Shown one piece after another: positions 1 through 29,400 of a stretch of 64,000 nucleotides of DNA (positions are counted from its first letter, which is position 1; each line of letters starts with the position of its first letter). Origin of the DNA: Takakia lepidozioides (lineage: Eukaryota; Plantae; Bryophyta); contig CM060734.1 of NCBI GenBank assembly GCA_030704615.1, positions 15,314,001 to 15,378,000 on the forward strand, read 5' to 3'. The notes under the pieces are model-generated. The model was not told the origin of the DNA. It saw only the letters and a program-made list of their open reading frames with translations, and did not search any database. The translations under genes were made by a program, and so were the position numbers.

Positions 1-1
1 C

Positions 2-130
2 CATATGCCAACCCCTTGAGCATCGATCACACACCAGCATGGTGGCTGCCCCTTTGGCAGACCCACAGAGCATGCACCTCAAACCTGCAGGTACCACTGC
101 CAAGTTTGGGTCAACTCTGCCATCGACATT
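2..130 (-). CDS. PHD finger at the integrase C-terminus (partial, cut by window edge)
   Basis: Manual translation after a frameshift near 130: NVDGRVDPNLAVVPAGLRCMLCGSAKGAATMLVCDRCSRGWHM, matching the first half of the PHD pattern (C-x2-C...CDxC...H). Confidence 0.85.
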
Positions 131-1728
131 GGAAGGTGACATGGCGCACAATTACGCACATGGTCTTTCCAAGTCATGCCATCCCGACCCTCTAAGATCA
201 GGACCCCTGAGGGCAACACCTCTCGAACCCTCAGAATAACACGCCCTGCAGTAACATCCAGAGTCGTAGGAGCAGTCTGCTGCAAATAAACATAGTCACC
301 AGGGCTAAACCTCCGAACCCCAGGACGATATCCTCCACCACGTATAGTGGCATACCTCAACGTATCACGGTGCTGTGCAATGGCAAGGTTCTCAAAAGCC
401 ATGGGCATGACTTTCTTGAACAACTCTGCACGCTGATCACATGCACGTACCCACACGTCCGGATCGTCAAGGTTAAGGACTTGAGCAGTGTCCCTACGAA
501 TGGCTGCAGGCAAATCCGGCTCTCGGCCAAAGAGAAGGAAATATGGTGAGAAGGAGGCAAGTGATGCTTGTTTGCTGAACCTGTAGCCCATGGCTAACCA
601 AGGAACCTGAAGATCCCAATCTCCTAGGTGTCCCTTCTGCAAGCCATACTTGCGCAAACCCCTCTTCACCGTCTGAACAACTCTCTCTGCTAAGCCATCG
701 GCCTCAGGATGATCCCGAGAAGTGGTGCGGTGGTCTATCAAGGCTTTATCACACAAAGCCTGAAACTCCCCCAAGAACTCTCTCCCTTGGTCCGTGAGTA
801 CCTCAGCTGGAGCACCAAATCGGCTAAGCACACGATCCAAGAATGCATACGCAGCCCCCTCACTAGCCTTGTCAGGCAATGGAACCAACTCAATCCACTT
901 GGAGAAGTGCTCCACCATCACCAACACATATCTGTGGTGGCGCATAGTCAGTGGCAACGGTCCTGCGAAGTCAAGACTCCACCTGTAGCCCAATCCCATG
1001 ATAGGTAAAGGATGCAACTGTGGTGTAGGGGCGTTGAATGAAGCACGCACCCTGTCACACACCATGCACCTAGCCACAAACTGTTGCACCTCTGTATGCA
1101 TACCACGCCACCAATACTGCCCCTGCAGTAAACTGTGAGTGCGTCGCACTCCAAAATGCCCCAACTCCTCATGGGCATGCCGCACTAACCGTGCACGCTG
1201 TGTGGGGTGAGGCACAATCCTCACCCGACCATCCTCCCACACTCGAAGTAGGTGTATCCCCTCCCACTTGAACCTCTTGGCTCGTTGCAGGATCCGATCC
1301 CTCTCCCTGGCAGTCACAATGGCTGCCGTGTCTCCCGTGCGGAGGTAGTCCAACACAGCCGAATCCTCATGTATATCTCTGGCACCACCTAGCTCATCAC
1401 TAGCCTCAGGGTCCTCAGACACTCCGTCTACAGTCATCCCTGTTGTAGGTCCAATCTGACCTCCCGATGCCAAGATACACAAAAATGCAGATGCGTGCCA
1501 TCCCGGCACCATCTCCTCGTCCGTCTCACCATGCCACCGAGCTCCAGTGTCATCCTGCTGGCTCATGCATGGATTGCGACTCAATCCATCCGCATCCCGA
1601 TTGACCAAACCCGGTCGATGCACAACCTGAAAGTCATACTCCTGGAGTATAAGTGCCCACCGTGCAAGCTTCCCTGTAAGCTTGTCTGACTCCATCAACC
1701 ACTTGAGTGGCTGTGTGATCCGTGACAA
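79..1728 (-). CDS. End of RNase H plus integrase (HHCC zinc-binding and DDE core) of A1
   Basis: LARWALILQEYDF; HEELGHFG...CMVC; WSLDFAGP...VLTDQGREF...GLAERVVQTVK. Confidence 0.95.
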   Translation of the reverse strand: MSRITQPLKWLMESDKLTGKLARWALILQEYDFQVVHRPGLVNRDADGLSRNPCMSQQDDTGARWHGETDEEMVPGWHASAFLCILASGGQIGPTTGMTVDGVSEDPEASDELGGARDIHEDSAVLDYLRTGDTAAIVTARERDRILQRAKRFKWEGIHLLRVWEDGRVRIVPHPTQRARLVRHAHEELGHFGVRRTHSLLQGQYWWRGMHTEVQQFVARCMVCDRVRASFNAPTPQLHPLPIMGLGYRWSLDFAGPLPLTMRHHRYVLVMVEHFSKWIELVPLPDKASEGAAYAFLDRVLSRFGAPAEVLTDQGREFLGEFQALCDKALIDHRTTSRDHPEADGLAERVVQTVKRGLRKYGLQKGHLGDWDLQVPWLAMGYRFSKQASLASFSPYFLLFGREPDLPAAIRRDTAQVLNLDDPDVWVRACDQRAELFKKVMPMAFENLAIAQHRDTLRYATIRGGGYRPGVRRFSPGDYVYLQQTAPTTLDVTAGRVILRVREVLPSGVLILEGRDGMTWKDHVRNCAPCHLPMSMAELTQTWQWYLQV

Positions 1729-2908
1729 GGGTGAAAAGATTGCCGTATAGATAGCACCTGAAGTGTGCCACGGCCCACACTGCAGCTAAGCACTCTCCCT
1801 CATATGAGCTGTACTTAGCCTCTGCAGCGTTGTTCGAGCGGCTAGCGTAAGCCACTACGAACTCTCTTCCCTCATCATCCACCTGTGTGAGCACCGCTCC
1901 AAGCCCCAGCATGCTCCAATCCGTATGCAGCTGAAAGGGACGCCCCCTGATAGGTCGTCTCAAGATAGGCGCCGAGGTCAACCTCGCCTTGAGCTCTTGA
2001 AAAGCTCGTTCCTGCTCATCTTCCCACTGCCACTCCTGGTCCACCTTGGTCAGCTTGGTTAGAGCCTTTGCAATGGTACTAAATCCCTTGACAAACCGTC
2101 TATAATAGTTTGCCAACCCCATGAAAGCTCGAACTCGGCTCACATCCGTGGGGCGTGGAATTTGTGCAATGGCCTCTACCTTAGTCTGCTGTACCCCCAA
2201 TCCTCCAGGATATATCATGTGACCCAGATACTCAATCTGGTTGTGGAAAAACTTGCACTTCCCCGGATGCAACTTCAATCCGTGCGCTCTCAAGCGCTCC
2301 AATACCACCTGAAGGTGTCTCTCATGCTCCTCCATCGTAACACTAAAGATGATGATGTCATCTATGTAGCACCGAGCAAAGTCCACCCCTGCTAGAATCC
2401 TATCCATGACTCTCTGAAACTCTGCAGGAGCATTCTTAAGCCCAAATGGTAAGAACCGCCACTGATATAGGCAATCCTTGCCGTGCTCATTGATCCCCCA
2501 GAATGCCGTCTTCTGCTTGTCCGCCTCCTTGATTGGCAACTGGTGATATCCGGATCGTAAATCCAAAGTGCTAAAGGCCTTAGCATGCCCGATGGCATCA
2601 AAGATCTCCTCTGGTGTTGGCATGGCATACTTATCGGACTTGGTCTGACGATTTACAGGCCGGTAATCACCGCACATACGTCTCTCCGTCCAATTGCCAT
2701 AGACATCCTTCTTGGCTGGCATCACTGTGGCTGAAGCATACTCTCCACCAGAGAGCTCCACCAAACCTGCCTCCCAGAGATCTTGAGTCCTCATCTGAAT
2801 CAAAGACCTCTCCATGTCACTGTATCTATAGGGTCTCCGAAAGATTGGCGTGTCAGTGGCCAACTCAATACGGATCTCTTGACCCTTCAGTGCTCCCAAG
2901 TCCTTCAA
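1634..2908 (-). CDS. Reverse transcriptase and RNase H of A1
   Basis: [48 protein letters not shown]. Confidence 0.97.
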   Translation of the reverse strand: MKDLGALKGQEIRIELATDTPIFRRPYRYSDMERSLIQMRTQDLWEAGLVELSGGEYASATVMPAKKDVYGNWTERRMCGDYRPVNRQTKSDKYAMPTPEEIFDAIGHAKAFSTLDLRSGYHQLPIKEADKQKTAFWGINEHGKDCLYQWRFLPFGLKNAPAEFQRVMDRILAGVDFARCYIDDIIIFSVTMEEHERHLQVVLERLRAHGLKLHPGKCKFFHNQIEYLGHMIYPGGLGVQQTKVEAIAQIPRPTDVSRVRAFMGLANYYRRFVKGFSTIAKALTKLTKVDQEWQWEDEQERAFQELKARLTSAPILRRPIRGRPFQLHTDWSMLGLGAVLTQVDDEGREFVVAYASRSNNAAEAKYSSYEGECLAAVWAVAHFRCYLYGNLFTLVTDHTATQVVDGVRQAYREACTVGTYTPGV

Positions 2909-3182
2909 ACTGAAGGCAAAGCAATTCCTGTAAGCCCTCAGGAACCGCCGTATACGTCGTCTCTCTCCTCCGGTGACAATGGGTCCAATGTCAGGCTCCC
3001 AATTGTCCTCCGTAACTACAACCTTAAGTCCAGTGGGCTTAGAGGTAGAGGACGCGTCCCGTGGTTGCTATGCTGCAACCTCTTGAGCAGTACTCCCTAC
3101 CTGCTCAGTCAATGACAAGGCATCATCCTGCCCCATCATCTCATCCTTGAGGACCTCCTCAACTCGAGAAGAATCCCCAACC

Positions 3183-4390
3183 TCATCCATCACAGCCGCC
3201 TTGGCTGCCAACTCTCTGAACCTCGAGCACCTCCCACGTGTGCCATGGATGCATGCACCCCGTGGTCCTCACATGCTCGCCCCCACTCACTGCCTGTACC
3301 GTCTCGGTAGGCAGAGAGACCATTGAGGGAAGTGTATTCCGCACTCTGCGTTGCTCAGCTAGAGCCAAGCTGATAATCCAGGTCAAGCAATTGAGATCCA
3401 TTGCTTGCCCCAACACTTGACGACGTGATGCCTCAGAAAGAGACGACACCGCCGTGGTACCAGTGGTAAAACCCATTGCCCGCTCACGCTCGTCAGCATT
3501 AGGCTCCACTAACTGCTGCAACTGAGCATCCCACAGGAGGCCAGGTCCACTATCCCGGAAAGCATGCGATCCTGGGAAGCTGAGCAGTGTAGGTAATGCT
3601 GCTCGTGGTTGACCCCCTTGTTGACCACTGCCAAAGGCGAACGGTCATCGTGTCTCACACGTTGAGACTGCCTCCCTGTGTCCAGAATGTTATCCACTGT
3701 GAGATGTGCTGGCCGCTGCACCCCATCAAATGCACGCTTGAGCAGTGCGGGTGGCATCATGTTAGTCCACCATAGCCGTGGACGATGAGCCCGTGACCCC
3801 ACTGTAGCTGCATCTAGCAACACTGCTGACCCAAGCCACGACCGGACTTGATGCACACTGGCCATCACCCTGGCCCGAGAATTGCCCATCAGTGGCACAT
3901 TCTCCAAGATGTATGCTGGAGATACAGCTTGATGAAGCTGCAAGTGGCGCAAAACCCGCACCATCTCCCAAAACAGACCCGACCTCGAGTCTCGCAATCC
4001 ATTGCCATGCCCGGCTGATGAATGCCCTTGGCAGGGCCAACCTGCCACTACCAGATCAATGGAGCCAACCCGCTCCAAATCCTGCGCCCCCAGCAACGAA
4101 ATGTCTGCTGGCAAGGCCTGCTGATATCCACGAATTGCAGACACCGACAACAACTCAGGGTACCGCTGCACCAACTGAGCAACATGGCGAAGTGAAACGC
4201 GTCGTGCAGTCTCATCCCTCTCCACATACAGGTAACGCCGAACTCGTACACCTGCCTGTAACACGGCAGCCAATCCGGTGCTGATCCCGCCAAACAAGTC
4301 CAGAAGACAAATGCCTTCATCCGGAGACTGCCACACAATAGGTGTGGTGTCCAATGGAGACAATTGAGGTGGTCCTGGTGCAATCCCCAC
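3183..4390 (-). CDS. C5 DNA cytosine methyltransferase domain (DNMT3/DRM-like catalytic motifs) inside Pol, with one frameshift near 3615
   Basis: Motifs in canonical order: I LLDLFGGISTG, II YVERD, IV AGWPCQGHS, VI YILENVP, VIII AHRPRLWWTN, IX ERERAMGF, X RQVLGQAM. Confidence 0.93.
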
Positions 4391-5072
4391 ACTCTCCTCC
4401 TCTCCTGACGTACAAAAGCCTCCACCCAGGCTTGTTGCACCCGTCGATCAGCATCCCGCTGCAAATCCTTGCTCGTGCCCCACAATGGAGTCTGAGCAAC
4501 CATGGTAGGCAACTCCGCCATACCATACATGTCATCCTGCTCTCCCGAGGTGGTACATCCTCTGAATGAGCATTGCCCTCAAGCAACTCTCTAGGCCAAT
4601 TCACTGCCGCTGTGAATGCTGCTAGTGTCGGCATCTTGCCTCGCTGGGCAACCGCAACTCCTCCTATGAACGTCACAGGGAGCTGCGCACGCCGGCCCTC
4701 CCCTGACTGCCATGCAGGCCTATAGGAAGCTGACTCCTCCCAAAAATCCAGGGTGAAGCCCATGGGGTACAACACTGCCCCACCAACCAGGACATCGTAT
4801 GAGACTGCGTCTGTCACAATGGCCTTGGCTCGCATCACTGAGCCATCTGTAGGGTGATCCGGCCGTAGTCTGATAGCCAACTCATGCCGTGTCATGCCCC
4901 GAGCCTGCTCCGATCCTCCCAGAGACGTCTGTATCTGGAAAGGACAAGGCTCCATATCCGCCTCCGTGAGGCCCAAGCCTGCAATAGCAGCTCTGCCCAG
5001 CATCAGTGGCTGAGCTCCCGAGTCCAACAAGACTCGCAGTGGCCGGTACCTCTTGCCTGCCTGCCTGTCCAC
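4317..5072 (-). CDS. Aspartic protease of A1
   Basis: RVLLDSGAQPLMLG catalytic motif and YDVLVGG second motif. Confidence 0.88.
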   Translation of the reverse strand: MDRQAGKRYRPLRVLLDSGAQPLMLGRAAIAGLGLTEADMEPCPFQIQTSLGGSEQARGMTRHELAIRLRPDHPTDGSVMRAKAIVTDAVSYDVLVGGAVLYPMGFTLDFWEESASYRPAWQSGEGRRAQLPVTFIGGVAVAQRGKMPTLAAFTAAVNWPRELLEGNAHSEDVPPRESRMTCMVWRSCLPWLLRLHCGARARICSGMLIDGCNKPGWRLLYVRRGGECGDCTRTTSIVSIGHHTYCVAVSG

Positions 5073-5438
5073 TCAAACAGAAAATGCCATCCTGGTTGTC
5101 TAACATGACAACTCCAGGTGTCACCATGGCGCGCTCAATGGCTGGCCTAGCTGGCAGCTCCATCAACCTGGCAGCTGCAGCTTGCCATGGCGCCGCCGTG
5201 GCAGTCTTGACCCTCAAATCCGAGGATCCCTCCGGCACTACACCTCCCACTATCTCCGCAGAAGATGAAGTAACCTCCCCACTCTCACAGAGTGTAGCTG
5301 CCAGCCTGAACACCTCAGCTGGTCTTACCCCCGGCGTCGCAATCATGGTAGCCGAGAACAATGGAGCCTGGCACACAGATGTGGCCGCTCCTAGCAGCAC
5401 ACTAGCTGCCGTAGCCTTGGCAACACTAGGTAGTGGTG

Positions 5439-6257
5439 CTACCCGTGTAGCTCTCCCAATGGCATAGTGACCTCCGCCTCGGTAACAGTCGGGCGAGAAC
5501 TAGGTGCCATGGATGGCGTCGACACTGTCTCCGCCAATGTGAATGACTGAGGAAGCCTAGCCTGACGGCTTGCCTCCCCACGCTGTGGATCCAACTCCAC
5601 CTCTGCACCTCGTGGCTCAGGAACTCGTGCTGCTCCTCGAGTCACGGCTGCAGCAGACTCCACCTGCACTAGTGGTAGTGCTGCTCCACACATGAATCCC
5701 ATGCCTCCCATATCTCCTCCCTCAGGAGCAGGAGGTGGACCATCCGGCCTTAGAGCCGGTACCACCTGAGCTGTAGCCATGGCAGCGAGCCTCTGCTCTA
5801 GCTGCTGAAGCCGGTTGGCCATGCCTTGGTCAACACCCTGACCTCCGCGTCCTTGGCCACGTTGAGCTTGCCCTTGGCCTGCACCTCGTGGCTGGCCACC
5901 TCGTCCTCTCTGGGCTGCTCCACCTCGCCCCCGGCCACCATTGTTCCCTTGGAACTGGCCTGGGCGCAACTCAGGATGCAAACCATAACACTGAGCCTCT
6001 CCATGCCCGTGTTTGCCACAATGCCCACACTGTAACTGTGCAGGCTGTGCATGTGCCGACCCTTTGCCTCCCTCTGGACAATCCTTCTTGACATGGGGTC
6101 CTCCACATGTCCAGCACACCACATCCGCCCGTTGTTGGCCAGCAAATGAAGGGAGAGACCCCTGCATTTGAGGTCCTCTCTGCCCTTCCCTGAGCTTCAC
6201 CTGAGCCCCCTTGTTGCCTTGAGCACGTTGAGGTAGTGGTTGGCTAGGAGCACCCAC
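5439..6257 (-). CDS. Gag C-terminal part with two zinc knuckles and an RGG-rich tract
   Basis: CWTCGGPHVKKDC and CGHCGKHGHGEAQC, followed by GRGRGG repeats. Confidence 0.88.
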   Translation of the reverse strand: MGAPSQPLPQRAQGNKGAQVKLREGQRGPQMQGSLPSFAGQQRADVVCWTCGGPHVKKDCPEGGKGSAHAQPAQLQCGHCGKHGHGEAQCYGLHPELRPGQFQGNNGGRGRGGAAQRGRGGQPRGAGQGQAQRGQGRGGQGVDQGMANRLQQLEQRLAAMATAQVVPALRPDGPPPAPEGGDMGGMGFMCGAALPLVQVESAAAVTRGAARVPEPRGAEVELDPQRGEASRQARLPQSFTLAETVSTPSMAPSSRPTVTEAEVTMPLGELHG

Positions 6258-7237
6258 CCCCGTGGTGTCTCCTTAGCAAATCCCACCATGACCACTCGTT
6301 CCTCCACCATGTTGAGCTCTATCCGCTCTGCCAGCAAAAACACATTTGCTAAGGTGGGTTGGGCCGCTTGTAGGAGAGTTGCATCCCGCACCCTTCTCCT
6401 CAGCTCCTTGTCCAATATCCCATACCAGAATTGGACTGCCTGAGCTTCCGTAACCCCTTGGGTTACATTTATCAAGCGCCTCATGCGAGTGAAAGCCTCC
6501 CTCAAGCTCTCGGTCGGCTTCCGTTGGAACTCTTGCAAGCTCCGCAACTTCTCTGTCCTCACCCCTTGGTAGTTCCCTCTCAACTCTTCGAAGAACTCCA
6601 CAACAGGGTTGAAGGCAGGCACGGGTGCTAGTGCTGGTGCGGTAGTGGCTTGGGTGGATGTCGTAGCTACTGTACCACCAGTCCCACTGCTACTTGCTGA
6701 AGCTGCCGGTGCAGCGGCAGGTGTAGCCACTGCCCTCGTGGCTCTAGTGCCCCTAGTGATGGAGACATAGTCGGGTGACCAGTACATCCTCCACTCCTCG
6801 ATCTCAACCTCATGCCCCCGCCTGAACTCATGGTAATCATCCATAGGCGGCCCCTCAAGGTGCTGAAACAGCCCCTTCCATGCCATGAAAGGCGTAAATA
6901 GTTGTGGATTGCGCATTTGCTGCAAATCACACCAACTATCAAACTCTTGGATAAAATCATCCAACTCAATGGTGCCCACCGCCCCAGAGTACCTTCGTGG
7001 CCCCTTGGTAGCTCCATACATCTCCTCCATTGTGTCCCACAACAATGGCAAAGAAACAACTTGCACCGCCGGTATGAGTCCTCCCGATTCACAATCCGAA
7101 TCAAAACCTTCCGTAGAAGACACAGGAGGTGAAGGTGGCCTAAACCGCACACCTCGTCTCGTGTACCCACTAGTATCGCTAGTGCTCGAACCGGCACTGT
7201 CCCCAGCAACTAGTGGCACCTCCGTGTTGACACTCAA
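6197..7237 (-). CDS. Gag capsid-like region of A1
   Basis: YSG...LDDFIQEFDSWC and FQRKPTESLREAFTRMRRL, typical of retrotransposon gag; lies upstream of the zinc knuckles. Confidence 0.82.
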   Translation of the reverse strand: MSVNTEVPLVAGDSAGSSTSDTSGYTRRGVRFRPPSPPVSSTEGFDSDCESGGLIPAVQVVSLPLLWDTMEEMYGATKGPRRYSGAVGTIELDDFIQEFDSWCDLQQMRNPQLFTPFMAWKGLFQHLEGPPMDDYHEFRRGHEVEIEEWRMYWSPDYVSITRGTRATRAVATPAAAPAASASSSGTGGTVATTSTQATTAPALAPVPAFNPVVEFFEELRGNYQGVRTEKLRSLQEFQRKPTESLREAFTRMRRLINVTQGVTEAQAVQFWYGILDKELRRRVRDATLLQAAQPTLANVFLLAERIELNMVEERVVMVGFAKETPRGWVLLANHYLNVLKATRGLR

Positions 7238-7899
7238 CCGGTCATGAACATGTCCCTAACCCCTCTTCACAAGGTAACCGGGTAGAGAACCTGTTGCGGC
7301 TTATGGTTTGGAATACTAAGTTCCTAACATAGCCTACACCTGTACCTGCATCCACCACAAGCACTCCTATGGTTGGCTGGTCATCACCTCCAACCTCACC
7401 ACAGGAGAAACAATGATGGTCTGGCTGGTCATCACCCCAGCCTCACCATCGACAGCATGCTCTAGGACTGGCCGGTGATCAAATCCACCAATCACCTATA
7501 AAAACAAGCGCCCACACAAACTAGCATGGCGCACAGTCAAGCATGCAGGTATGGAGGGGATCCAAACACAAGAAATCAGATCGACAACTCCCCCACACCA
7601 AAAACAACTCCACGGTGTTGCTCCTGCAAGGACACCCCAGCCCAAACCCGGACTGACTCTTGCCTCCACCTACGGAAAGGTCTTGGCCTAATGAGAGGGT
7701 GGAAACTACGAGGAAGAGAAGCTAAAGAAATGCCTAACCCCAGCATGCTCTCATCCCAACACTCTGCCTCTCCTCTCTATCCTCACTTGCATGACCATGG
7801 GAATATCATGAAGATACTCCTCAAACCGCCTCCACGAGCTTCAAAATTCGGCCTTCCAGACCACATGCCAGTCCTTAGGCAGTCCACCAGTGCCTCCAC

Positions 7900-9505
7900 G
7901 AGTCAGCACAGGCCGTCCACAGGTCAACACGGGCCACCACAGACCAGCACAGGCCCACACAGCTCACTGGTCACAGCCGTCACAGTCCCCACAGGCCACT
8001 GGGCACAGCCTGTCGCAGCCCCTCACAGCCTGTCACAGCCTCAAAGGCCTCAGGCACGGCCTGTCACAGCCCCTCACAGCCGTCACAGTCCCACACAGGC
8101 CACTGGGCACAGCCTGTCGCAGCCCCTCACAGCCTGTCACAGCCTCAAAGGCCTCAGCACGGCTGTCACAGCCCCTCACAGCCCCTCACAGCCTCAAAGG
8201 CCTCAGGACACGGCCTGTCACAGCCCCTCACAGCCCGTCACGCCCAAAGGCCCACGGCCTGTCATCACAGCCCGTCACAGCCCCAAAGCCCCAGGCACGG
8301 CCTGTTACACCCCTCACAGCCCGTCACAGCCCCAAAGGCCATGGCACGGCCTGTCACAGCCCCTCACAGCCCGTCACAGCCTCAAAGGCCCAGGCACGGT
8401 CACAGCCCTCACACCCGTCACAGCCCCAAAGGCCACACAGCCACAGCCTGTCACAGCCCGTCACCCCCATAGGCCTCAGGGCACAGCCTGTGCACAGCCC
8501 GTCACAGCCCAACCACACACAGCCTGTCACAGCCTGACACAGCCCGTCACAGCCCCACAGGGCACAGGCACCCCTGTCACGCCCGTCACAGCCCGTCACA
8601 GCCCCAAAGGCCTCAGGCACGGCCTGTCACAGCCCGTCACAGCCCCAAAGGCCTCAAGCCTGTCAGCCTGTGTCACAGCCAGCCCGTCACAGCCCAAAAG
8701 GCCACTGGCACAGCCTGTCACAGCCCAGCCCGTCACAGCCCCACCGGCACAGCACACCCGTCACAGCCCTCACAGCCCATCCCAGCCGTCACAGCTGCAC
8801 AGCCTGTCACACCCGTCACAGCCCGTCACAGCTCGCCACGCCTGACAGCCCCACAGCCCACAGGGCACATGCACACCTGTCACAGCCCCTCACAGCCCGT
8901 CACAGCCCCAAAGGCCTCAGCACGGCCTGTCATAGCACAGTCACACAGCCTGACACCCGTCACAGCCCACAGGCACTGTCAGCCCATCACAGCCCATCAC
9001 AGCCTCACAGCTTGCCACAGCCTGTCACAGCCTTCACAGCCCGTCACAGCCCCACAGGCCACTGGCACAGCCTGTCACAGCCCGTCACAGCCCCACAGGC
9101 CTCAGGGCACAGCCTGTCACAGCCCCGCACAGCCCCACAGCCCCACAGCCTGACACAGCCCGTCACAGCCCCACAGGCCACAGCAGTCACAGCCCTCACA
9201 GCCCGTCACAGCCCCAAAGCCTCAGGCACAGCCTGTCACAGCCCGTCACAGCCCCACAGGGCACAGGGCACAGCCTTCACAGCCCATCACAGCCCATCAC
9301 AGCCTGTCACAGCCCTCACAGCCCCACAGGCCTGGGCACAGCCTGTCACAGCCCCACAGCCCCACAGCCGGCACAGCCCCGCACAGCCCGTCACAGCCCC
9401 AAAGGCCACTGGGCACAGCCCGTCACAGCCTGACACAGCCCATCACAGCCTGTCACAGCTTGCCACAGCCCGTCACAGCTTGCCACAGCCTGTCACACCC
9501 CACAC
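7900..9505. repeat. Degenerate ~10-bp tandem array (GTCACAGCCC / GTCACAGCCT) in the A1 leader
   Basis: About 1.6 kb of CACAGCC(C/T)GT units, directly visible. Confidence 0.95.
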
Positions 9506-9984
9506 ATGGCCGCTCTGGCAGTTTTAGCCATTTCTCCAAGGGTTTTAGCCACCAAGCTAGGGTTTGTGTCTCTTGGACTCTAGGCTTCTTTCCACCGAGC
9601 TATGGTGGCTGTGAGGAAATCAGCAAGGTATCCTTGCTCTTTCGGCTCCCACACACCACCATAGTAGCCCTAAGCCATGAGGTGGTTGCCACAAACCAAG
9701 CCTTCTTTCTCACTTAGCCTCCCCAAACACGCCACTAAACTCAATGGCAAACAACCAAGCCCTGCTGGTTCCCAGCCCTTGTGAGCACTCATTCAAGCAC
9801 TCCCCTCATTGGCCATAGCATCTGTCTTAGAGCCTATTCCAGCCCTCTACACCTATTGCTTCAAGAGTTGCGCTCCCTTCAAGCTTGAAGTTGAAACCCC
9901 AACTCACATAGGCCCTACAAGTGCTGTTCTTTCACTCCAAGTGGAAACCAGCCCTAGACCTTCCGTTCTAGCTCTCTAAGGCTT

Positions 9985-10330: not shown

Positions 10331-11319
10331 CACAAGAGATATCAGCCCCCTATCTTGGCTCCTTGGCTCCTTGATGCTCTCTAAGACAAGACTAAGCACT
10401 CCATAGCCTTTGCCAAGCTCCTGAAACCCTAAGGCTTACATTTCCAGCCACAAGACACTTCTCTTGTGGTGCAAGAGCTCTTCTTCCAAGCTCTGAAACC
10501 CTAGGTGCACATTCCATGGCCTTGCCGCACCTCTTAGCTCCTGTTCCAGCCCTGCTCTTGCCATGACAAGAGCCCTCTCAATGCTGAAGCTCGAGATTGA
10601 AACCCAATCTCACCATACTCCACAAAGTGCACTGATTTGCCCCAAGCCAAATCAGCCCTTTCGCTTGGTCTTGCAATCCTTCACACATGACAGCTCGCAT
10701 TCCCAAGTCCAGTTCTCAGCTTTGCCACCAAAGCCACTATAACCTGCTCTTGACTGGTCCTCTTCCCAATCGTGCTTGCTCATGCATGTACACAATCTGA
10801 AACCATCAAGGTGCTCTGGAATTACCTACAGTATGGTGCTTTCATCTCTGAAGCTGAAGATCGAATGCCAAGGTTTACCACCTCGTAACCCACATCGCCT
10901 CCGCTTCTAACAACCAAGAGCTCCACGGTGCATAACAACTTGGTTTCTCTCATTCTCAAGCAAAAACCACAAGTGCTACAACTAACTCGTATCTAGCACT
11001 CATAGATACGAGCTCATCTTTCTCGAGTGATAAAGAGGAAGGATACAAGCACAAGCTCATGCGAGCTCACAAAGCTGAAGCATAAACTCATGCATATATA
11101 ACCTCATCACTCAAATACAAGTCAAGCCAAGTGCACCCCACGCCATGGGGAATCCACACTACGGCGCCATAGCTAGGCGCGGTGAGGCTCAACTCGAAAG
11201 ATGAGCCTCCCGCGCTTGCCGTGAAGATAACCACTCCAGGGCCTAAATCTGCCTTGACCCCTGGATTGACACTCGGGCCAATCCCAAATGTCAATATGTA
11301 AAAGATAGCTATTTCCTAG

Positions 11320-12660
11320 CTAGTTTCACACTAGTGGTAAAATAACTTGACATGGCATTCTGTTGCCAAGTGTCCTGCAATCCCGCATTTGTGACATCAT
11401 GTTGCTTTTCGTGGCCCTTCATCTTTAAAATTCTTGATAGCCTCTGCAACCTCCGGATTAAAGTGGTTTTGTCAATCACTTCTTTCTTCTTTTGCTTGGG
11501 CTTTTCTTCATCATCAGAGTTTTCTTCTTCCAAGGGATCCTTGGAATCTTTACTTCTGCTCTGATGAAATCCCAATTCCAATTTCTTTGCAGTTCCTACT
11601 GCTTCAGCCAAAGTGTTGTTAGGCATGACTGTAACCATGGTTACATATTCAGGATGAAGGGACGAAGTCCGTTGATGAACCATGATTTTTGCAAGTCATC
11701 ACTTGGTGCTTGAGGTAGCTTCCTGATCAGAGTCTTCATTCTCTCCAGGTAGTCGACTACCAATTATTTCTTTTTCTGTCTCAGGTTCTGTAATCATGTG
11801 AAGATTTCAGACGTGGATTTGTTGGATCTATATCGTTCTTGAAACGCAGCTCTCATATCCGCCCAATTTGCAAAGTGATTGGCTGGAAAGGTTGCCAACC
11901 ATTCAATGACTTTTCTGGCCATTGAACAAGGAAATAATCGGATCTTTTCCTGGTTTGTTGCTTCATTGTAAATGGCGCATATGTTCTCAAATTGATTAAG
12001 ATGGATATTCGGATCAGATTTCCCATCATATAAAGGGAACGTCGGTCTGGTTTTGCTTGCTGCTAAAGCCATTGGTGCTGCTGGTGCAACTGGTTGTCCA
12101 AACTGGGATGGTCCCACTGCTGCTGGCTATGGTGGTGTTGGGATTGTCAAGGCTAGTGGTGTTGTTGGTGTTTGTCTTCCAAACAATGATTCAAAGCTAG
12201 GAGGTCCTTGTCCCAATGATAGCCGTCTTCCAGCTGTTGTCCCTACTAAGCTTAATGAATCTTTAAAAGCTTTGAGTGCAGTCCTGGTTATCCTTTCTGG
12301 AGAAGTAGTTTCATTTTTTTCCCCTTCTTCACTCGGAATATTCTCAAATCTTTCTTCCAATATTTCAGCAAAACCTTGATTTGGACTTGTTACTGTAGAA
12401 GGTCCGTCGGATCTTTCTTGTGGTAACCATTCGCCAAGTGTATTACTTGCAACTCCTTCTGGTGTAGTGTTCTCACTTTTCAAAGATCCGATTTCCTGAT
12501 CTTCTGGTTTATCACTGTCAATTTGTCTTGATGTCTCACTTTAAATAATATTCAAGTTTTGTAATATTGGGAACTCTTTTCTCAACCGAGCTTCCCTTTC
12601 TGCAACATATTTCTCTATTCTTTCAGCTCTGCCTTGCTTAGCTTTTTCCTTAATTTCCTC
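11320..12660 (-). pseudogene. Disrupted gag of B1
   Basis: ORF pieces 12127-12483, 11794-12117 and 11309-11683, separated by stops and frameshifts. Confidence 0.85.
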
Positions 12661-13255
12661 ATTCATTTCCATATCATATACAAAGTTCCTTTTCAGCACC
12701 CTTTAATCAGCCTTGGTATGTCAGTAAAGAAAAATTATAGTGGTCTCTACCCTTTCTCCAAGATTTACCCTATCTTGCCAGAATCCGTATCACGACTTAA
12801 TTTTCCTTTACTGATTGATCACCAATCTTTTAATGGGCACAATAATACCATTTGACTTTCTCAGTGTATCTGACTTGTAACAAGTCTTTGGGTATCCAGT
12901 ACTTCACTGCTTCTATGATCATATGACAATATTCATATAATTTGAACATCCTTCCCTGAAAATATAACTAGTGTAGCAAGCCTTTCTGATTGGGATTAGA
13001 GTAATCAATAAAGCTAGACGAGACAACCATTCTTCACTTCTGATTCTACATTCCCAAGGTGCTCGTGTAATACCGATCACTCCTCCCTTTAATCCCCATT
13101 TGTCATCTTCTGTTGTATTGCTATTGGTAAGCCATGAAATTTTTTCAGGAATGCTTTCCATTCCTCTTCTTCCGTTGACTCGTTCTTTTGTGATTTTAAG
13201 AAATCACTGAGTAACCATCCTTCCTTGAGTTCACTTGAACTCAACATATCGTTAG

Positions 13256-13273
13256 TCCCCAATATGGTCGCCA
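13256..13273 (-). promoter_or_regulatory. Primer binding site TGGCGACCATATTGGGGA (probably tRNA-Arg)
   Basis: Follows the LTR end ...AACA-TT; near-identical at 35248-35265 and 53955-53972. Confidence 0.85.
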
Positions 13274-13275
13274 AA

Positions 13276-14120
13276 TGTTAATTACTGGTTCATGACTTAG
13301 ACAAAACAGGCTATCAGCACTACTGCCCATTTCCCAAGACATGCAACAGAGGTTGTCCGACGGTATGCTTTCAGAAACGATTACAAAGTAATCGTTGTAA
13401 GGATAGCTAAACCATGGATGTCGTATGAATCAATATCTCTACAGGTTGCTTAATCCTATTGATTAAGCCCAACCTACAGTCTCTTTGGCCTAAAAGATCT
13501 TAGTCGAATCGATTTAAGCCTCTTTGTTCATACAATCAGATGGTAGTCAAGACAAAACAAGAGCTATTCTGAGATGATACACATTCTCACCATCTCACGT
13601 TCTCTCATAATGCACATTCTCTCCATCTCACGTTCACTCTACACAGAGATACTTTGAATAGCATGGCTTTACTTCAGAGTTCATCACATCATCGCAGAAG
13701 TACACATCAAATCACTCCGAGTCCACTGAATACACACTGATCACTGATACCTTCTAAGTCGTCGTTACAACCTGCAGTGCAGTCGTTAATGACCGTTTGC
13801 CTAACTGCCTACGCAACCTAAAGGGTTTGCTAAAAAAGTGACTCGTTGTAGTGGTCGTGTGCCATAGTGGTAAACGGTCCACTACTTCCTCTATTAGTAA
13901 AAAGCCGATGGTAACGTGGTCGTGTGATATCGTGATTCACGGCCCACGGTTGCTACACTACCCACTACTGCTCCCGTGGTAATGTACCCTTGTTCCGCCA
14001 TTTGCTAAGTACCGCGTACTTAGCCTTTTCTGCTCGTGACCAGGTAGTGTACACCAATCACCACCCGGTATGTCCCGTCATGACCCTCGCTGTCTGGCCC
14101 TCGTAGCTTAGCCGTTATCA
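13276..14120 (-). repeat. 5' LTR of B1 (TGATAAC...TAACA)
   Basis: TG...CA termini; family A integrase sequence starts abruptly at 14121. Confidence 0.78.
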
Positions 14121-17100
14121 AGGCACAATCCTCACTCGTCCATCCTCCCATACACGGAGTAGGTGAGTCCCCTCCCACTTGAACCTCTTGGCTCGTTGTA
14201 GGATCCGATCTCTTTCCTTAGCAGTCACACTGACTGCTGTCTCTCCGGTACGAAGGTAGGCCAACACTGCTGCATCTTCATGCACATCCTTAGCACCACC
14301 AAGCTCTTCACTGATCTCTGGATCGTCATGCACACCATCTACATGACCAATCCTATGGGATGGACCAGCTTGCAGAGCTCCCATTGCTAGAATGCACAAA
14401 AAGACAGATGCATGCCATCCTGGCACCATCTCCTCATCCCTCTCACCATGCCACCGAGCTCCAGTATCATCATGCTTGCTTGTGCATGGATTACAACTCA
14501 ACCCATCTGCATCCCGATTGACAATACCGGCTCGATGCACCACCTGGAAGTTGTACTCTTAAAGCATAAGTACCCACCGTGCAAGCTTCCCTGTAAGCTT
14601 GTCTGACTCCATCAACCACTTCAATGGTTGGTAATCCGTGACAAGGGTGAAGAGATTGCCATAGAGGTAGCATCTGAAATGTGCCACTGCCGATACTACA
14701 GCTAGACACTCCCCTTCATATGAACTATACATAGCCTCTGCATCATTGTTCGAGTGGCTGGCATATGCCACTACGAACTCTCTCCCCTCATCATCCACCT
14801 GTGTGAGCATTGCTCCAATCCCCAGCATACTCCAATCCGTATGTAGCTGGAAAGGCCGCCCCCGAATAGGCCGCCTCAGAATAGGCACAGAAGTCAATCG
14901 AGCCTTGAGTTCCTCAAAGGCTTCCTCCTGCTTGTCCTCCCACTGCCACTCCTGACCCACCTTGGTCAACTTGGTAAGAGCCTTCGTAATGCTGTTAAAT
15001 CCATTGACGAACCGACAATAGTAGTTTGCCAACCCCATGAAAGCACGAACTCTGCTCACATCTGTGGGACATGCATGCAATGGCCTCCACCTTTGTCTGT
15101 TGAACACTCAATCCTCCAGGGTATATCATGTGGCCCAAATACTCAATCTGATCGTGGAAGAACTTGCACTTATCAGGGTGCAGTTTCAACCCGTGCACGG
15201 TTGAAGGTATCTCTCATGCTCCTCAACCGTGGCACTAAATATGATGATATCATCAATGTAGCACCGGGCAAAATCTAGCCCTGCAAGAATCCTATCCATG
15301 ACCCTCTGAAATCTGCAGGAGCATTCTTCAACCCAAATGGTAAGAAGCGCCATTGATACAAGCAATCCTTCTCATGCTGGTCAATCCCCCAGAATGTCGT
15401 CTTTTGTTTGTCAGCCTCTTTGATTGGCATTTGGTGGTAATCGGATCGCAGGTCCAATGTGCTAAACACCTTTGCATGCCCAATGGCATCAAAGATCTCC
15501 TCTGGAGTTGGCATGGCATATCTATCGGACTTAGTTTGACGATTCACAGGGCGATAATTCCCACACATCTTTCTTTCTGTCCAATTGCCATAGATATCCT
15601 TCTTAGCTGACATCACTGTTGCCGAGGCATACTCCCCGCCTGACAACTCCACCAATCCAGCTTTGAACAACTCCATAGTCCGTGACTGGATCAAAGACCT
15701 CTCTATGTCACTATACCTAAAGGGCCTTCAAAAAATTGGCATATCACTTGCCAAATCAATACAAATCTCATGGCCCGTCAAACTCCCCAAATCCTTCGAA
15801 CTGAATGCAAAGCAATTTCTATAAGCCCTTAGAAATTGCTGGATCCTCTGTCTCTCTCCTCCGGTGACTGTAGGACAACAGGGAAGTATCCAGAAACAAG
15901 TAGCTGCGATGAGGAGAAGCTGTGGAATGAATACTTTTCTGACCCCAGTCAATGGTGGGACAACTGGGGCAAAAAGGTGAATGCCTGTTGGATTATAGAG
16001 AGTAGCAGATGCAATTGAACATATGAACTAGTGTGATAAGTAGGGTTGGGGTGTTTGCTGGAACAACTCTAGGATGTCATTGTCAGCTGCTAGCAGCAAG
16101 GCAAGGATGTATGCATGGTTTGTGCATAGGCATGGATAGCTGAAGGAGCGGGGATGGAGTGTGGGTCCAGATTCATCCAAGAGGGCCAGATTTCAAGCAT
16201 AAGGTTACCTATGATTCCCTGTGGATCAATAGCTACAAGAAACCTGCATGCCCAAGAATCCCCCATGAGAGGAACATTCTCTAGGATGTAAGCTAGAGGT
16301 TGCACTTGCCTCACCTGCAAGTCCAACATCTGGTTCCCAATTGTCCTCAGTGATTGCAACCTTGGGTACACCAAGCTTGGAGGTAGGAGACGCATCATTT
16401 GGTTGCTAGATAGCAACCTCTTGGGCCTTGTCCGCCCACCCTGACTGTGGCGTAGCCTCCACTTGCTCCGCCATAGCCACCTTGAGAATATCCTCTAGGG
16501 ACGAAACATCCTCAACTTATTCAAAAACCTTGGCCACCTTGGCCTCCAACTGGTCCTCAGTATATGGCTCTCCCCACTCCTCATATTGTTGCTTGAGAGA
16601 TCCAATGACTCTCTATTTGCGCATCTCATCCCACATTTGCCATGGGTGTCTGCACCCCATGATCCTGTGCTCGCCCCCACTCACTGCTTCAACCGTCCCG
16701 GTTGGCAGAGAGGATGCAGTATCCAATGGAAGTGTAGAAGTAGCCATAAATGCTTGCAATCTCCGTTGCTCAGCCATGCACAAGCCAATGACCCATGTCA
16801 AGCAATTTAGATCAAATGCTTGACCCAACACCTGTTGGCGTGATGCCTCTGACAGAGCTGGCACAGCTGTAGTGCCTGTGGCAAACCCCATTGCCCGCTC
16901 TCGCTCACCCGCATTGGGCTCCACCAATTGCTGTAGCACACTGTCCCAAATCAACCCTGGACCGTTGTCTCAAAAAGCATGAGACGAGGGAAAGCTGATG
17001 AGTGCAGACAAGGCCACTCGTGGCTGCCCCACTCGGTTGACCACTGCCAAAGGTGGACGGTCATCATGACGCACTCTCTATGCTTGCCTCCCTTGGTCCA

Positions 17101-17285
17101 AAATGCCCTCAACCGTGAGGTTGGGTGGCCGTTGAATGGAATCAGAGGCTCTCTTGAGCAACTCTGGTGGTGCAAGATTGGTCCACCACAACCTAGGCCT
17201 ATGTGCCCGTGATCCCACTGCAGCTGCATCCAAAAGTATAGCTGGTCCAATCCATGATCGGATTTGATGCACACTGGCCATAACC
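14121..17285 (-). pseudogene. Family A copy A2: decayed and rearranged MTase-RT-RNase H-INT
   Basis: Colinear with A1 1210-3870; retains AHRPRLWWTN, ERERAMGF, RQQVLGQAFD and YILENVP; contains stops, frameshifts and an insertion at 15880-16320. Confidence 0.92.
15880..16250 (+). pseudogene. Intron-containing fragment encoding an OSB-type PDF motif
   Basis: EEKLWNEYFSDPSQWWDNWGKK, then a GT-AG intron (about 15977-16170), then IHPRGPDFKHKVTYDSLWINSYKKPA. Confidence 0.8.
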
Positions 17286-17314
17286 AGGGTTTGTGTGTGT
17301 TTGTAGTGTTTCTG

Positions 17315-17865
17315 GCAGCCCTGTAAAAGGGCAAAGAGATCCCTGGTGACATGATCAAATCTGCAATTGTTCCAGATGTCATCCTGAACACTGCTCTGGT
17401 GGCCATGTATGCCAAATGTGGTAGCATTGAGGATGCCAAGGGAGTGTTCAACACTATGGCTGAATGAGATGTGGTGTTGTAGAATGCGATGCTTGCAGGG
17501 TGTGCAGAGCAGGGGCTTTGGAGACCTGAAAGCAAATGATGGGGGAAGGGGTGAAGTTCGACCACATCATATTTGTGTGCATTTGCAGTGCGTGTGCAAG
17601 CCTGGCAGCCCTGGAAAAGGGCATCGGAGGTGCATGGTTGCATCACAAAAGCTGGAAATGTACCAGATGGATCAATAGCTACAAGAAACCTACATGGGTA
17701 GATGGTCAACTAGAAGCCGCAGCAGCAGCGGCACAATGATAAACTCAGACACTGGTAATGAAGGCACCTTCTTCAACACATTTCACCCTATTTTCCCCTC
17801 TTATCAGAATCGGCCCTAAATTTTCATGTTGAATTCTGCAAGTTAGCTGGTTGAGTGAGCCTTTG
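17315..17865 (+). pseudogene. Inverted PLS-PPR fragment followed by a PDF-tail exon
   Basis: LVAMYAKCGSIEDAKGVF, VCICSACASLAALEKG, then WINSYKKPTWVDGQLEAAAAAAQ. Confidence 0.75.
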
Positions 17866-18160
17866 ATAGTTTGGAGCGACTTTGACATGGCTTCTAGTTG
17901 GCGGGCTTCACCCCTACCCCCCATCATTTGCTCATGTTGGAGCCTCCATCCCGCACCCTTGTTGTGCATACCCCGCAAGCATCGCACTCCACGACACCAC
18001 ATCTCGTTCAGCCATAGTGTTGAACACTCCCTTGGCATCCTCGATGCACCCACATTTGGCATACATGTCTACCAGGGCAGGGGCAGTGTTCAGAATGACA
18101 TCTGGTAATTTGACAGACATTCACCTTTTAGAATTGTTCCAGCAAATGCCCCAACCCTAC

Positions 18161-18402: not shown

Positions 18403-20369
18403 AACTCAACTTATCACACTAGTCCCTATGGTCAATTGCATCTGCTACACTCTGTAATTTGACAGGCATTCACCTTTTTGCCTCAGTTGTCCCACCAGTT
18501 ACTGGGGTCAGAAAAGTATTCATCCCACTGCTTCTCATATCTGTTACCTGTTTTTGGATACTTTCCTGTTGTCACATTGGCAGTATCATGTCAAAGTCAC
18601 CCCAAAAGAGATTCACTCAACCAGCTAACTTGCAGAATTCAACATGGAAATTTAGGGCCGATTCTGATAAGAAGGAAAAACAGGGTGAAATGTGTTGGAG
18701 AAAGGTGCCTTCATTAGCAGCGCCTGATTTTATCCATTGTGCTGCTGCTGCTGCGGCTTCCAGTTGACCATCTGTTTCTTGTAGCTATCCTTCCACAGGG
18801 AATCATAGGTAATCTGGAGCTTGAAATCCGAGCCTCTTGGATGAATCTGGACCCACAATCTATCCCTACACTCCTTCAGCTATCCATGCATGTGTACAAA
18901 TCATCAATACATGCTCAGCCTCGCTATAGCTAGCAGCTGACACTGACGCCCTAACCCTACCTACAGTAACATATTCAAAATCACTCCAAACCCACCATAG
19001 ATCCACCAACGAGCTTCTCCTCATCTATGTTATCTATTTCTGGATATTTTCCTGCTGCTACATCGGCAGTAACTTGTCAAAGTCACTCCTAACCACCACA
19101 GATCCACCCAATGAGCTAACTTACAGAATTCAATATGCATCTCAGGGCCGAGTCTGATGAGAGGGTAAAATAGGCAGACATAGGTTGAAGAAGAAGGTGC
19201 CCTCACCACATTATCGACCTTGACCTTGTGTCATGACCCATGGAGGATTTGCATGACCATGAACCCAAATGGACCTCTTGAGTGTGTGCTGCTTGTGGCT
19301 GTAGTCAGGTAATGTTGGATTGGTCCATGAGAACCACCACGGTGCAGCTGAGCGAGCAGAGATTGAAACACGACACATGTCAAAATCACTCCAACACCAC
19401 CCTAGTTCCACCAACGAGCTAACTTGTAGAATTCAACATGAAAATTTAGGGACAACTCTGATAGCAGGGGAATTCAGGGTGAAATATGTTGAAGAAGGTA
19501 CCTTCATTAGCAGTGGGCCTTGGTCTATCAATTGTGCTACTGCCATTGCTGTTTCCAGTTGACCATCTACCCACTCGTAGTGGTTGTGCTATTGACGAAG
19601 GTGCCCCCCCTTCCCCCATCATTTGATCATAGGTCTCCAAAGCCTCCATACCATGTCCCTGTTGTGCATACCATGCAAGCAACGCGTTCCATGACACCAC
19701 ATTTGGTTCAGCCATAGTGTTGAAAACTCCCTTCGCATCCTTAATGCACCCACATTTGGCATAGACATCACCAGGGGAGTGTTCAGGATGACATCTAGTA
19801 CAATTCCAGCTTTGACGATGTCACCATGGATCTCTTTCCCCTTTTCTAGAGGTCCCAGGCTCGCACACGCATTGCAAACATGTGCAAGCGTGATGTGGTT
19901 GGGCTTCATCCAGATTTGCGCAGCATTTGCTCATAGATCGCCAAAGCATTCCTACCACACCCATGCTTGGTAAATCCTGCCAACATTATATTCCACATGA
20001 TCAAAGATCGCTGAGGCATTATGTAGAAATCTTGGCGAGAATCCATGATGCTCCCGCACTTAACATACATGTTGACAAGGGTGTTGAGTAGAAAAAACAT
20101 TTGGCGTGAATCCACTTTGGATAATGTGAGTGTGCACCTGATTCCAGCTTCCAGACCTAGAGCCTTTGTTAGTCTGCCTGCCTCACAAAGCATCTTCACA
20201 TGCCCATAAGTGCCAAAAGAGGCATTGTGGACTCCCTCTCTTGATCCTCTTCCAGAAGCTGTGGTCATGGTTGAGGTGCCTGACTTTATCAACTGTGTCG
20301 CTGCAGCTGCTACCTTTGGCGATGCAACCATGCACCTCTTTGCAGCTGGTAATCTGACAAGCATTCACC

Positions 20370-27720: not shown

Positions 27721-28820
27721 GAAGTGAAGAAAGGTGGTCGGGTTTTGCTTACTGCCAGAGCCATTGGTGCTGCTGGTGCAACTGGTGCTACTGGTGCTGC
27801 TGGTTGTCCAAACTGAAATGGTCTAGCTGTTGTTGACTGTGTTGGTGTTGGGATCGTCAATAATAATGGTGTTGCTAGTGTTTGTCTTCCAAAGAAAGAT
27901 TCAAAGCTGGGAGGTCCTTGTCCTAAGGATAGCCGCTTACTAGCTGTTGTTCCAACTGAACTTAGTGAATCTTTAAAAGCTTTGAATGCTGTCCTGGTTA
28001 CTTTTTCTGGAGAAGCGGTTTCAATTCTTTCGCCTTCTTCACTTAAAAGATCCTCAAATTTTTCTTCCAATAATTCCGCAAAACCTCGATTTGGGCTCGT
28101 TGCTGTGGAAGTTTCTTCAGATCTTTCCTGTGGTAACCATTCGTTGAGCATATTACTCACAACTCCTTCTGGTGTGGTCTTCTCAGTTTCTGGAGATCTG
28201 GTCTCCTGATCTTCTGGATTATCAGTTTCAGCTTGTTCAGATGTCTCTCCTGGAAGAATACTAAAGTTTTGTAATTTTGGGAACTTTTTCCCTGTTTTCT
28301 TCACTCATTCCCACATCATATATGGATCCCTTTTAATTACCCTTCCATAAGCCTTGGTATGTCAGAAAAGAAAATTACAGTGGTCTCTACCCTTTCTTCA
28401 AGATTACACCAACCTGCCAGAATCCGTAGCACGACTTAATCTTTCTTTACTGATTGATCACCAATCTTTTAATGGGCACAATAATACCATTTGTCATTAT
28501 CGGTATACCTGACCTGTAACAAGTCTTTAGGCATCCAGTATTCTACTTCTTCTATGACAGTGTGATAGTAGTCACAATTTGAAAACCTACTTTGTAGCTG
28601 TAACTGATATAATATATTTTACTGATCGGTACCAGTGTAATCAGTAAAGCAAGACGAGAAAGCCAAATCTCGCTTAATCGTTGTGGTTCCCAAAGTGCTT
28701 GTGCAATATCAATTACTCCTCCATTCGATCCCCATTTATCATCTTCTTTGGCAATTGAAAGAAGATCTTATGTTGTATTGCTACTGGTAAACCCTTGAAC
28801 TTTTCTAGGAATGTTTTCCA

Positions 28821-29387: not shown

Positions 29388-29389
29388 GT

Positions 29390-29400
29390 TTGGCGAGACT
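29390..29400 (+). promoter_or_regulatory. Self-priming type PBS TTGGCGAGACT
   Basis: Exact reverse complement of AGTCTCGCCAA at 29146-29156, which lies 31 nt after the TATA box start. Confidence 0.8.

Follow-up and report, generated by a model that had tools for sequence, protein, structure and literature searches.

Retrotransposons that carry DNA methyltransferases (DNMTs) have been described with their role left open and with algal hosts only (de Mendoza et al. 2018, PMC5890265, in the text available). The closest described system is KnitGypsy-Dnmt3 of Klebsormidium nitens, a Ty3/gypsy element with an intronless, non-rearranged DNMT3-like domain, the order protease (PR)-DNMT-reverse transcriptase (RT)-RNase H (RH)-integrase (IN), purifying selection and 'DIRS-like' repeats (PMC5890265). 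Other retroelements with DNA methyltransferases are SymbioDIRS-Dnmt3, which has A-coding-B-A-B repeats, and SymbioLINE-Dnmt (PMC5890265), of the tyrosine recombinase and LINE classes, and the EpiLTRs and DAM-LTRs (bioRxiv 10.64898/2026.05.21.726589), which combine DNMT4-sister and DAM enzymes with chromodomains. These other elements are captures independent of the one described here. The preprint also speaks of 'streptophytes (Gypsy-DNMT3)', and its available text names neither Marchantia nor any land plant (bioRxiv 2026.05.21.726589). In the literature examined, we found no account of the lineage in land plants, of the stop codon or of the end mechanism described below; Repbase and subscription papers may list bryophyte members.

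Here, we describe such an element in 64,000 nucleotides of Takakia lepidozioides (assembly GCA_030704615.1, contig CM060734.1, positions 15,314,001 to 15,378,000), a stretch that we call the window and to which all coordinates refer. We think it probable, though well short of certain, that the element is a frameshifted land-plant copy of the KnitGypsy-Dnmt3 lineage whose first open reading frame (ORF1), Gag-PR-DNMT3, ends at a leaky stop, so that the DNMT would be made at capsid level and would methylate the element's own cDNA. The family shares with KnitGypsy-Dnmt3 the intronless, non-rearranged domain, the domain order and the purifying selection, and the window's relatives show the A-coding-B-A-B repeats. 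Whereas the KnitGypsy-Dnmt3 model is continuous from DNMT to RT, the window family has a conserved stop followed by CARYYN, a land-plant host and a high copy number. Because its DNMT shares no single ORF with RT unless the stop is read through, we regard the family as a variant of that lineage. Its PHD finger, 4-bp target site duplication (TSD), self-priming site and att-like palindrome are absent from the available text on KnitGypsy-Dnmt3 (PMC5890265). The extension of host range is by itself of moderate interest; the position of the stop and the permuted ends are features that a specialist would not expect.

The element lies on the minus strand, as do all of its features given below. Positions 1-7255 hold gag, protease, C5 methyltransferase, RT, RNase H, integrase and a PHD finger, with the Gag-PR-RT-RH-IN order and DDE integrase of Ty3/gypsy elements. 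Gag (5440..7255; PF03732, E 0.001, below the curated cut-off) has two zinc-knuckle-like motifs (6116-6078 and 6029-5988) and is 67% identical to the N-terminus of Marchantia Mp4g09160. The aspartic protease (4660..5060) has LLDSGA at 5030-5013 and matches PF13650 below the cut-off (E 0.0095); the protease of an unbroken relative, L055, matches at E 2e-4. RT, with YIDD at 2368-2357, and RNase H occupy 1640..2995 (PF00078, 1.7e-33; PF17919, 2.8e-33), followed by an integrase with an H2C2 finger and DDE core (145..1210; PF17921, 4.4e-16; PF00665, 1.1e-13). The window edge truncates the C-terminal PHD finger (1..100), whose remaining piece matches PF00628 at E 4e-4; in L055, the match is at 2.6e-10.

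Upstream of gag, the element extends through a GC-rich, 10-bp-based tandem array (7892..9506, found with TRF) to a 325-bp terminal repeat, A, that starts at 11352 (11028..11352, TG...CA). This is the 5' end of the element. Repeat A starts TGTCAAG, ends TTTATCA and has its size, ends and one internal motif in common with repeat A of relatives. Contig cover is unbroken from gag to 11352, so the array is part of the element's leader of ~3.8 kb, and family contigs end or switch flank at 11352. The 3' repeats lie outside the window, and only the 5' A and the 5' TG end are visible. The sequence that received this insertion, at 11353-13300, is another repeat, with an open frame (11309-11695) interrupted at the 5' end; a related copy of the repeat lies at 27700-29400 (near 27.7-28.8 kb). 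Two further traces of the leader were seen: positions 24872-25507 hold the family's 5' leader and gag start as two halves in opposite orientation (82-88% identity), and an array related to the tandem array lies at 54614-54854.

The window copy is broken at nine places: near 6254 and 5454 (gag frameshifts), 5060, 4546, 4409, 3615, 3213, 1714 (a frameshift in the RT/RNase H region) and 130. At eight of the nine, contigs from other copies show an indel difference, the break at ~5060 being seen only as a loose end; the breaks are thus peculiar to this copy or to its assembly and are not features of the family. Contig records for the family number 83,791 in X1, which indicates a diverse multicopy family but is not a copy number. 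A second, truncated copy (14121..17296, minus strand) retains DNMT motifs VIII-X, TAG-CAACCA (16408-16400), RT and RNase H; it is 80% identical to the first in RT-RH and 71% in DNMT. One PPR piece sits where this second copy breaks off (~17300). Decayed PPR arrays occur as tandem units of 379-387 bp at 19600-22110, 38900-40300 and 17300-18100. The PPR context proposed in the first-pass annotation was borne out, with Pfam confirming PPR fragments in two ORFs; our reading of the repeats suggests the PLS class. Together with the neighbours in the trees described below, the PPR fragments point to a seed-free land plant as host.

The methyltransferase domain (3342..4321) is complete but frameshifted, and it matches PF00145 at E 1.8e-13, scoring 51 bits where the cut-off is 22. 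Between the protease LLDSGA and the RT YIDD lie, in order, motif I (LDLFGGISTG, 4303-4274), motif II (YLYVERDE, 4234-4211), motif IV (GWPCQG, 4042-4025), motif VI (ILENVP, 3910-3893), motif VIII (HRPRLWW, 3787-3767), motif IX (EPNADERERAMGF, 3506-3468) and motif X (RRQVLGQAMD, 3425-3396). We take the numbering to follow the C5-MTase convention. A frameshift near 3615 leaves motifs I-VIII on one side and IX-X on the other. The order, with catalytic PC, ENV and RxR, is canonical, so the enzyme is not a DRM. The first-pass annotation had proposed just such a C5 DNMT between the protease and RT of a Ty3/gypsy element, and these matches agree with it; the domain end that it placed at 3183 is a stop induced by frameshift, and the ORF1 stop of the family is the TAG at 3070-3068.

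Several comparisons place the domain near DNMT3. The best PDB matches are DNMT3A/3B, both with the single sequence (E 1e-9, against 5e-4 for DRM2 and 3e-4 for HhaI) and with a profile (5e-29, against 1e-14 and 2e-11). A structure model of the DNMT domain of a relative, L005 (pLDDT 90.7), was used for a fold search in which every listed match was a DNMT3 (best E 2.4e-19). By sequence and predicted structure, the window domain thus appears nearer to DNMT3 than to DRM, DNMT1, DNMT2 or bacterial enzymes. The DNMT3-type catalytic fold is common to host plant DNMT3/DRM and the window DNMT; unlike the host enzymes, the latter is without introns or companion domain and is embedded in a retroelement, and its motif order is non-permuted, unlike that of DRM.

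The dN/dS estimates indicate that the DNMT evolves under purifying selection at about 0.1. We obtained ~0.11 for L055/L056 and ~0.12 for L055/L058; the two window copies, compared over motifs IX-X, gave 0.06. Unsaturated between-group pairs range from 0.06 to 0.19, below Ka/Ks 0.2. Against other groups, synonymous sites are saturated, with dN of 0.15-0.49. Between close decayed copies, the ratio is 0.3-0.5, for RT as well as for DNMT. Of the 36 DNMT domains that are full-length and in frame in the loci, only 5 are free of stops, so most copies are dead. PC, ENV and RxR are retained in all five and across 50% divergence; among 68 mostly decayed loci, PC is present in 54 and ENV in 61. Stops per 100 codons in decayed copies are similar across domains (DNMT 1.2-1.4, Gag 1.5, PR 1.4, RH 1.3, RT 0.75-0.95), and DNMT therefore decays no faster than Gag-PR.

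In this branch, the junction sequences indicate that ORF1 is Gag-PR-DNMT3 and is ended by a conserved in-frame stop. The window stop is TAG followed by CAA CCA (3062..3070), which fits the CAR-YYA readthrough consensus (PMC2754532). Our set comprised 82 sequences (80 loci and the two window copies), 48 of which reach the RT start; two with late-starting matches were set aside (L015, without linker, and L051, which keeps the motif at the usual place), and the stop scored was the nearest in-frame one upstream of RT. It is a TAG or TAA with CARYY behind it at 44 of 46 junctions, against a background of 0.9% of all stops in the same sequences, and in five independent groups (a 39-copy Sphagnum-like group, L005, L055/L056, L058 and the window). 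The two exceptions have insertions and keep the motif further upstream. Contexts were CAACCC (37), CAACCA (3), CAGTTA (2), CAATCA and CAACCT. Exact CARYYA is confined to 6 of the 46 (window, L005, L025, L055, L056 and L058), and CAACCC or CAACCT, agreeing at five of six positions, accounts for 38. The codon that contains YY, the second after the stop, varies among Pro, Leu and Ser with YY constant, and synonymous sites are near saturation (pS 0.72-0.89).

The unbroken L055 consists of a 1369-aa ORF1 (Gag-PR-DNMT), one TAG-CAGTTA and a 1047-aa ORF2 (RT-RH-IN-PHD) in the same frame. Frames agree between PR and DNMT at 58/66 loci, between DNMT and RT at 34/48, and between Gag and PR at 25/47. Five Marchantia proteins and one from Calypogeia terminate 73-82 aa past the DNMT, consistent with the same stop. 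Not every relative has the stop: Klebsormidium, Closterium and several others have DNMT and RT in one ORF, and one of these others (P0190) is nested in the same RT clade. Support for a predicted RNA stem 3' of the stop is weak and at most suggestive (z -0.4 to -2.8, covariation term -0.54). In a eukaryotic Trinity transcript, P0182, RT-RH-IN-PHD forms a 'complete' ORF of its own, which hints weakly that RNA retains the stop.

After UAG, CAR-YYA is the readthrough signal of TMV; it also works with UAA, and readthrough amounts to 6-10% in Arabidopsis transgenics and, in transient assays, to about 20% (PMC2754532). Single in-frame stops at which CAR-YY sets a protein ratio are likewise reported for the gag/pol junction or the pol/env junction of MuLV, Tca2 and SIRE1 (PMC2754532, PMC2194720); here, however, the stop comes after the protease and an enzyme domain, not after gag. 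By analogy, RT-RH-IN-PHD is likely made by readthrough. Retroelements require about 20:1 Gag to Pol (PMC2194720), so the stop would place PR and DNMT on the abundant side. As the DNMT ends ORF1, with the stop before RT-RH-IN, it is likely produced at the level of Gag and not of Pol. The claim that the enzyme is built into Pol thus holds for its position between PR and RT but not for its reading frame, which is that of Gag-PR-DNMT; packaging with Pol, also proposed earlier, gives way to likely packaging at Gag level.

The ends of the relatives are not two identical direct LTRs around an internal region; they have the layout A-coding-B-A-B or A-coding-B. In five distinct insertions (L038/L052, L044, L045, L054 and L060), A (about 340 bp) is followed by the coding region, a polypurine tract, B (about 115 bp), A and B, and at eight loci the element ends in a single B. 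TG...CA ends, the polypurine tract and a 4-bp TSD are all present. TSDs were seen at nine distinct insertions, seven of them perfect; they are of the kind that a DDE integrase makes, and among these relatives they show no CG or other clear preference. None of the 24 5' ends (19 distinct flanks) has B upstream; each opens with A, as TGTCATG or a variant of it. Seen from reverse transcription, B+A makes up the LTR, so what is integrated is a permuted form. Where B meets A, the sequence forms a palindrome, CA(C/T)GACA-NN-TGTCA, which survives in L055 and L058 at 50% divergence, and the A|B border reads CA-GT-TG, resembling joined cDNA ends. End-joining followed by opening at the internal palindrome could produce this arrangement, and it leaves the use of only one of two such sites unaccounted for. 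A plain two-LTR circle also predicts A-B-A-coding-B, which we saw at 0 of the 24 5' ends. The A-coding-B form is not safe evidence for one-LTR circles, and we rejected it as such: one insertion site holds both L030, with one B, and L054, with B-A-B, so recombination or a collapsed assembly may account for the single B. The two have flanks 99% identical and element bodies 91% identical, as recombination or a mixed assembly would give. Troyka (PMC12440569), also considered, appears from the available text to be unrelated (animals, CG ends, 3-bp TSD).

Directly after A, there is no tRNA-type primer-binding site (PBS) but a sequence complementary to a stretch of A located 26 nt from the TATA start. 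The complementarity is an exact 16 nt in 3 of 24 5' ends (L029, L043 and L045, with the same core) and 9-10 nt at the same site in 6; in the rest, it is absent or elsewhere. The window's putative self-priming site (11012..11027, without a TGG tRNA-type start) has a different core from that of L029/L043/L045 and the same relation to A except for a 2-nt gap: by direct reading, the complementary stretch (11193..11206) is 2 nt short in this copy, and other family copies have the two extra letters. An LTR-complementary primer site likely means self-priming, as predicted for Tcn1. The Tcn1/Tf1-sushi chromoviruses are likewise Ty3/gypsy elements of non-seed plants without a tRNA PBS (PMC6317226, available text); the window family differs from them in having a PHD finger instead of a chromodomain, a DNMT and permuted repeats.

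The family is widespread in bryophytes, multicopy and not a one-off. Protein searches with the window domain returned 195 near-length and 59 longer proteins, with named relatives in Marchantia polymorpha, M. paleacea, Calypogeia fissa, three Sphagnum species and Closterium; Marchantia Mp4g09160 is 72% identical to the window domain. A search with L055 ORF2 added Riccia and K. nitens, whose KFL_009030040 has the PR-DNMT-RT-RH-IN order and is 47% identical to L055 ORF2. No fern, lycophyte or seed-plant names occurred among the matches listed (120 of 195, 59 of 59 and 120 of 2372). Repeats are often masked in sequence resources, so this absence is weak evidence. A profile search gave 737 clusters at E 1e-30, and 51 of the best 150 had the order RT-DNMT-IN.

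In an RT tree of 113 rows, the window falls in a 10-row clade with Calypogeia, Marchantia and Sphagnum-like loci (SH-aLRT 97), within a wider clade of 89 rows (support 82, below the starred level); chromodomain-bearing rows lie outside the window clade. A DNMT tree (FastTree, 78 rows, all of them retroelement or prokaryotic sequences) joins the window to the same Marchantia, Calypogeia and Sphagnum-like group (support 99). This group lies inside a 44-row DNMT-before-RT clade that includes Klebsormidium and Closterium (support 92, below the starred level), apart from an RT-DNMT-IN clade (support 82). Domain order and both trees thus suggest that the element belongs to the KnitGypsy-Dnmt3 lineage, with moderate deep supports, and vertical descent from a charophyte ancestor would be the simplest reading. 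The presence in land plants and the recurrence of the domain in other family copies, here a second window copy and dozens of loci, are upheld, and the suggested kinship with the Klebsormidium elements is supported. Among the other proteins found, P0163, P0164, P0169, P0229, P0239 and P0242 represent the second Ty3 clade, with DNMT between RNase H and integrase and, in several, a C-terminal PHD; we found no description of it in the parts of the literature examined.

How the element might work can be sketched from these features. Ribosomes would read through the stop at roughly 5-20%, by analogy with TMV, to make RT-RNase H-integrase-PHD, and the DNMT would be packaged at capsid level, where the protease would free it inside the particle. 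Reverse transcription would be self-primed from the LTR transcript end, and CG methylation of the cDNA would let new copies arrive pre-methylated, as self-camouflage or self-restraint. The PHD finger may bind chromatin with unmethylated H3K4, and the internal B|A palindrome could be where end-joined cDNA is opened for integration. The best solved matches of the PHD are those of CHD4, PHF12, PHF21A, KAT6A, ATXR5 and KDM5A, several of which (CHD4, PHF21A, ATXR5, KDM5A) we take to be readers of unmethylated H3K4, like the ADD domain of DNMT3. More tentatively, and with less confidence than in the window element itself, we suggest that this may be a streptophyte-wide Ty3 group, abundant to this day in bryophytes (the model Marchantia among them), with self-priming and with a DNMT3 brought to capsid level by a readthrough stop behind it, in which a DDE integrase, instead of using the cDNA ends, opens end-joined cDNA at CA[C/T]GACA-NN-TGTCA to give permuted LTRs. 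Methylation of the cDNA seems to us the likeliest task of an abundant DNMT3 in the particle and has been proposed before for retroelement DNMTs (PMC5890265, available text). As a mark of self-methylation, we looked for CG/CHG depletion: CG obs/exp is 0.52 in the element and 0.52 on average in the window. It is 0.35 in a LINE (RT at 47132-49066, PF00078) and 0.55 in a CACTA piece (transposase, 49701-50960, PF03004). With the element at background and the LINE and CACTA equally depleted, there is no self-methylation signature. Two other Ty3 fragments (30600-33300 and 62200-64000) are not CG-depleted (0.95 and 0.88).

Other explanations can be offered for the expression, the target and even the activity of the enzyme. 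ORF2 might be expressed by reinitiation at an AUG past the stop, an internal promoter or splicing, and not by readthrough, which would still leave the DNMT at Gag level. The context in the 39-copy Sphagnum-like group is mostly TAR CAA CCC ATG, whose in-frame ATG could allow reinitiation, but no ATG is there in the window, L005, L055/L056 or L058. The gag-pol junction of Candida Tca2 has promoter activity (PMC2194720, available text). Four gene models (P0129, P0131, P0138 and P0161) run DNMT into RT by skipping the stop; however, each does so from a different point, which is what artefacts of gene prediction would look like. YY is constant despite the amino-acid change in its codon, and DNMT and RT stay in frame at most loci despite decay, so we judge this alternative unlikely. 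We consider it quite unlikely that the substrate is the target site or host chromatin and not particle cDNA, with the DNMT working alongside the integrase PHD once the nucleus has been entered. The PHD at the integrase end, its H3K4-reader matches and the 51 RT-DNMT-IN clusters of the second clade would suit such a role, but in this branch the DNMT belongs to ORF1, the stop and RT-RH intervene before integrase, and the TSDs are without sequence preference.

A role that is non-catalytic (nucleic-acid binding in the particle) or not on DNA (RNA methylation) seems very unlikely to us. The Klebsormidium domain did not methylate yeast DNA, a result that its authors call inconclusive, whereas SymbioDIRS-Dnmt3 domains methylate CG in yeast (both PMC5890265, available text). 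CG depletion no greater than background and Gag-level amounts would also fit a structural protein; against this, the catalytic residues are kept in every stop-free domain and in most decayed loci. Finally, the copy has many frameshifts and no single contig among those listed spans the whole element, which could raise the suspicion of a chimeric assembly, a nested piece of host DNMT3 or algal contamination. This is extremely unlikely: a second copy lies in the window, dozens of loci have the same order, named bryophyte proteins have the same layout, all 30 bins are covered by contigs of three runs from three studies, and the RT and DNMT trees agree. The first-pass annotation had itself named chimerism and contamination as what would overturn it, and neither applies.

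We return to the probable reading of a capsid-level enzyme that would methylate the element's own cDNA. If this is true, new copies would be pre-methylated, and de-repression of the family could allow the plentiful enzyme to contribute to the methylome of the host. The stop position alters the model, since DNMT would be a bulk component of the particle and not a minor Pol domain, and permuted repeats with 4-bp TSDs would imply an unusual integration route for a DDE integrase. Such elements would also tend to escape standard finders that look for two LTRs, and this may explain why they have been overlooked. Note that many PF00145 gene models in Marchantia are these elements and can inflate DNMT counts. 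Since the lineage occurs in Marchantia, Calypogeia and Sphagnum, the role of retrotransposon DNMTs can now be addressed in plants with genetics and methylomes, and Marchantia makes both the stop position and the permuted ends testable.

Two further kinds of sequence appeared among the search matches. In P0170 (1417 aa), one chain unites a weak RT match with a C5 DNMT and with a Dam adenine methylase, which recalls the dual-methylase EpiLTRs (bioRxiv 2026.05.21.726589, available text). Prokaryotic or phage-like C5 methyltransferases were found in L076:420-1487, L077 and L079:5230-6117; L076 and L077 are about 32% identical to the query and have a DNMT3-like motif I.
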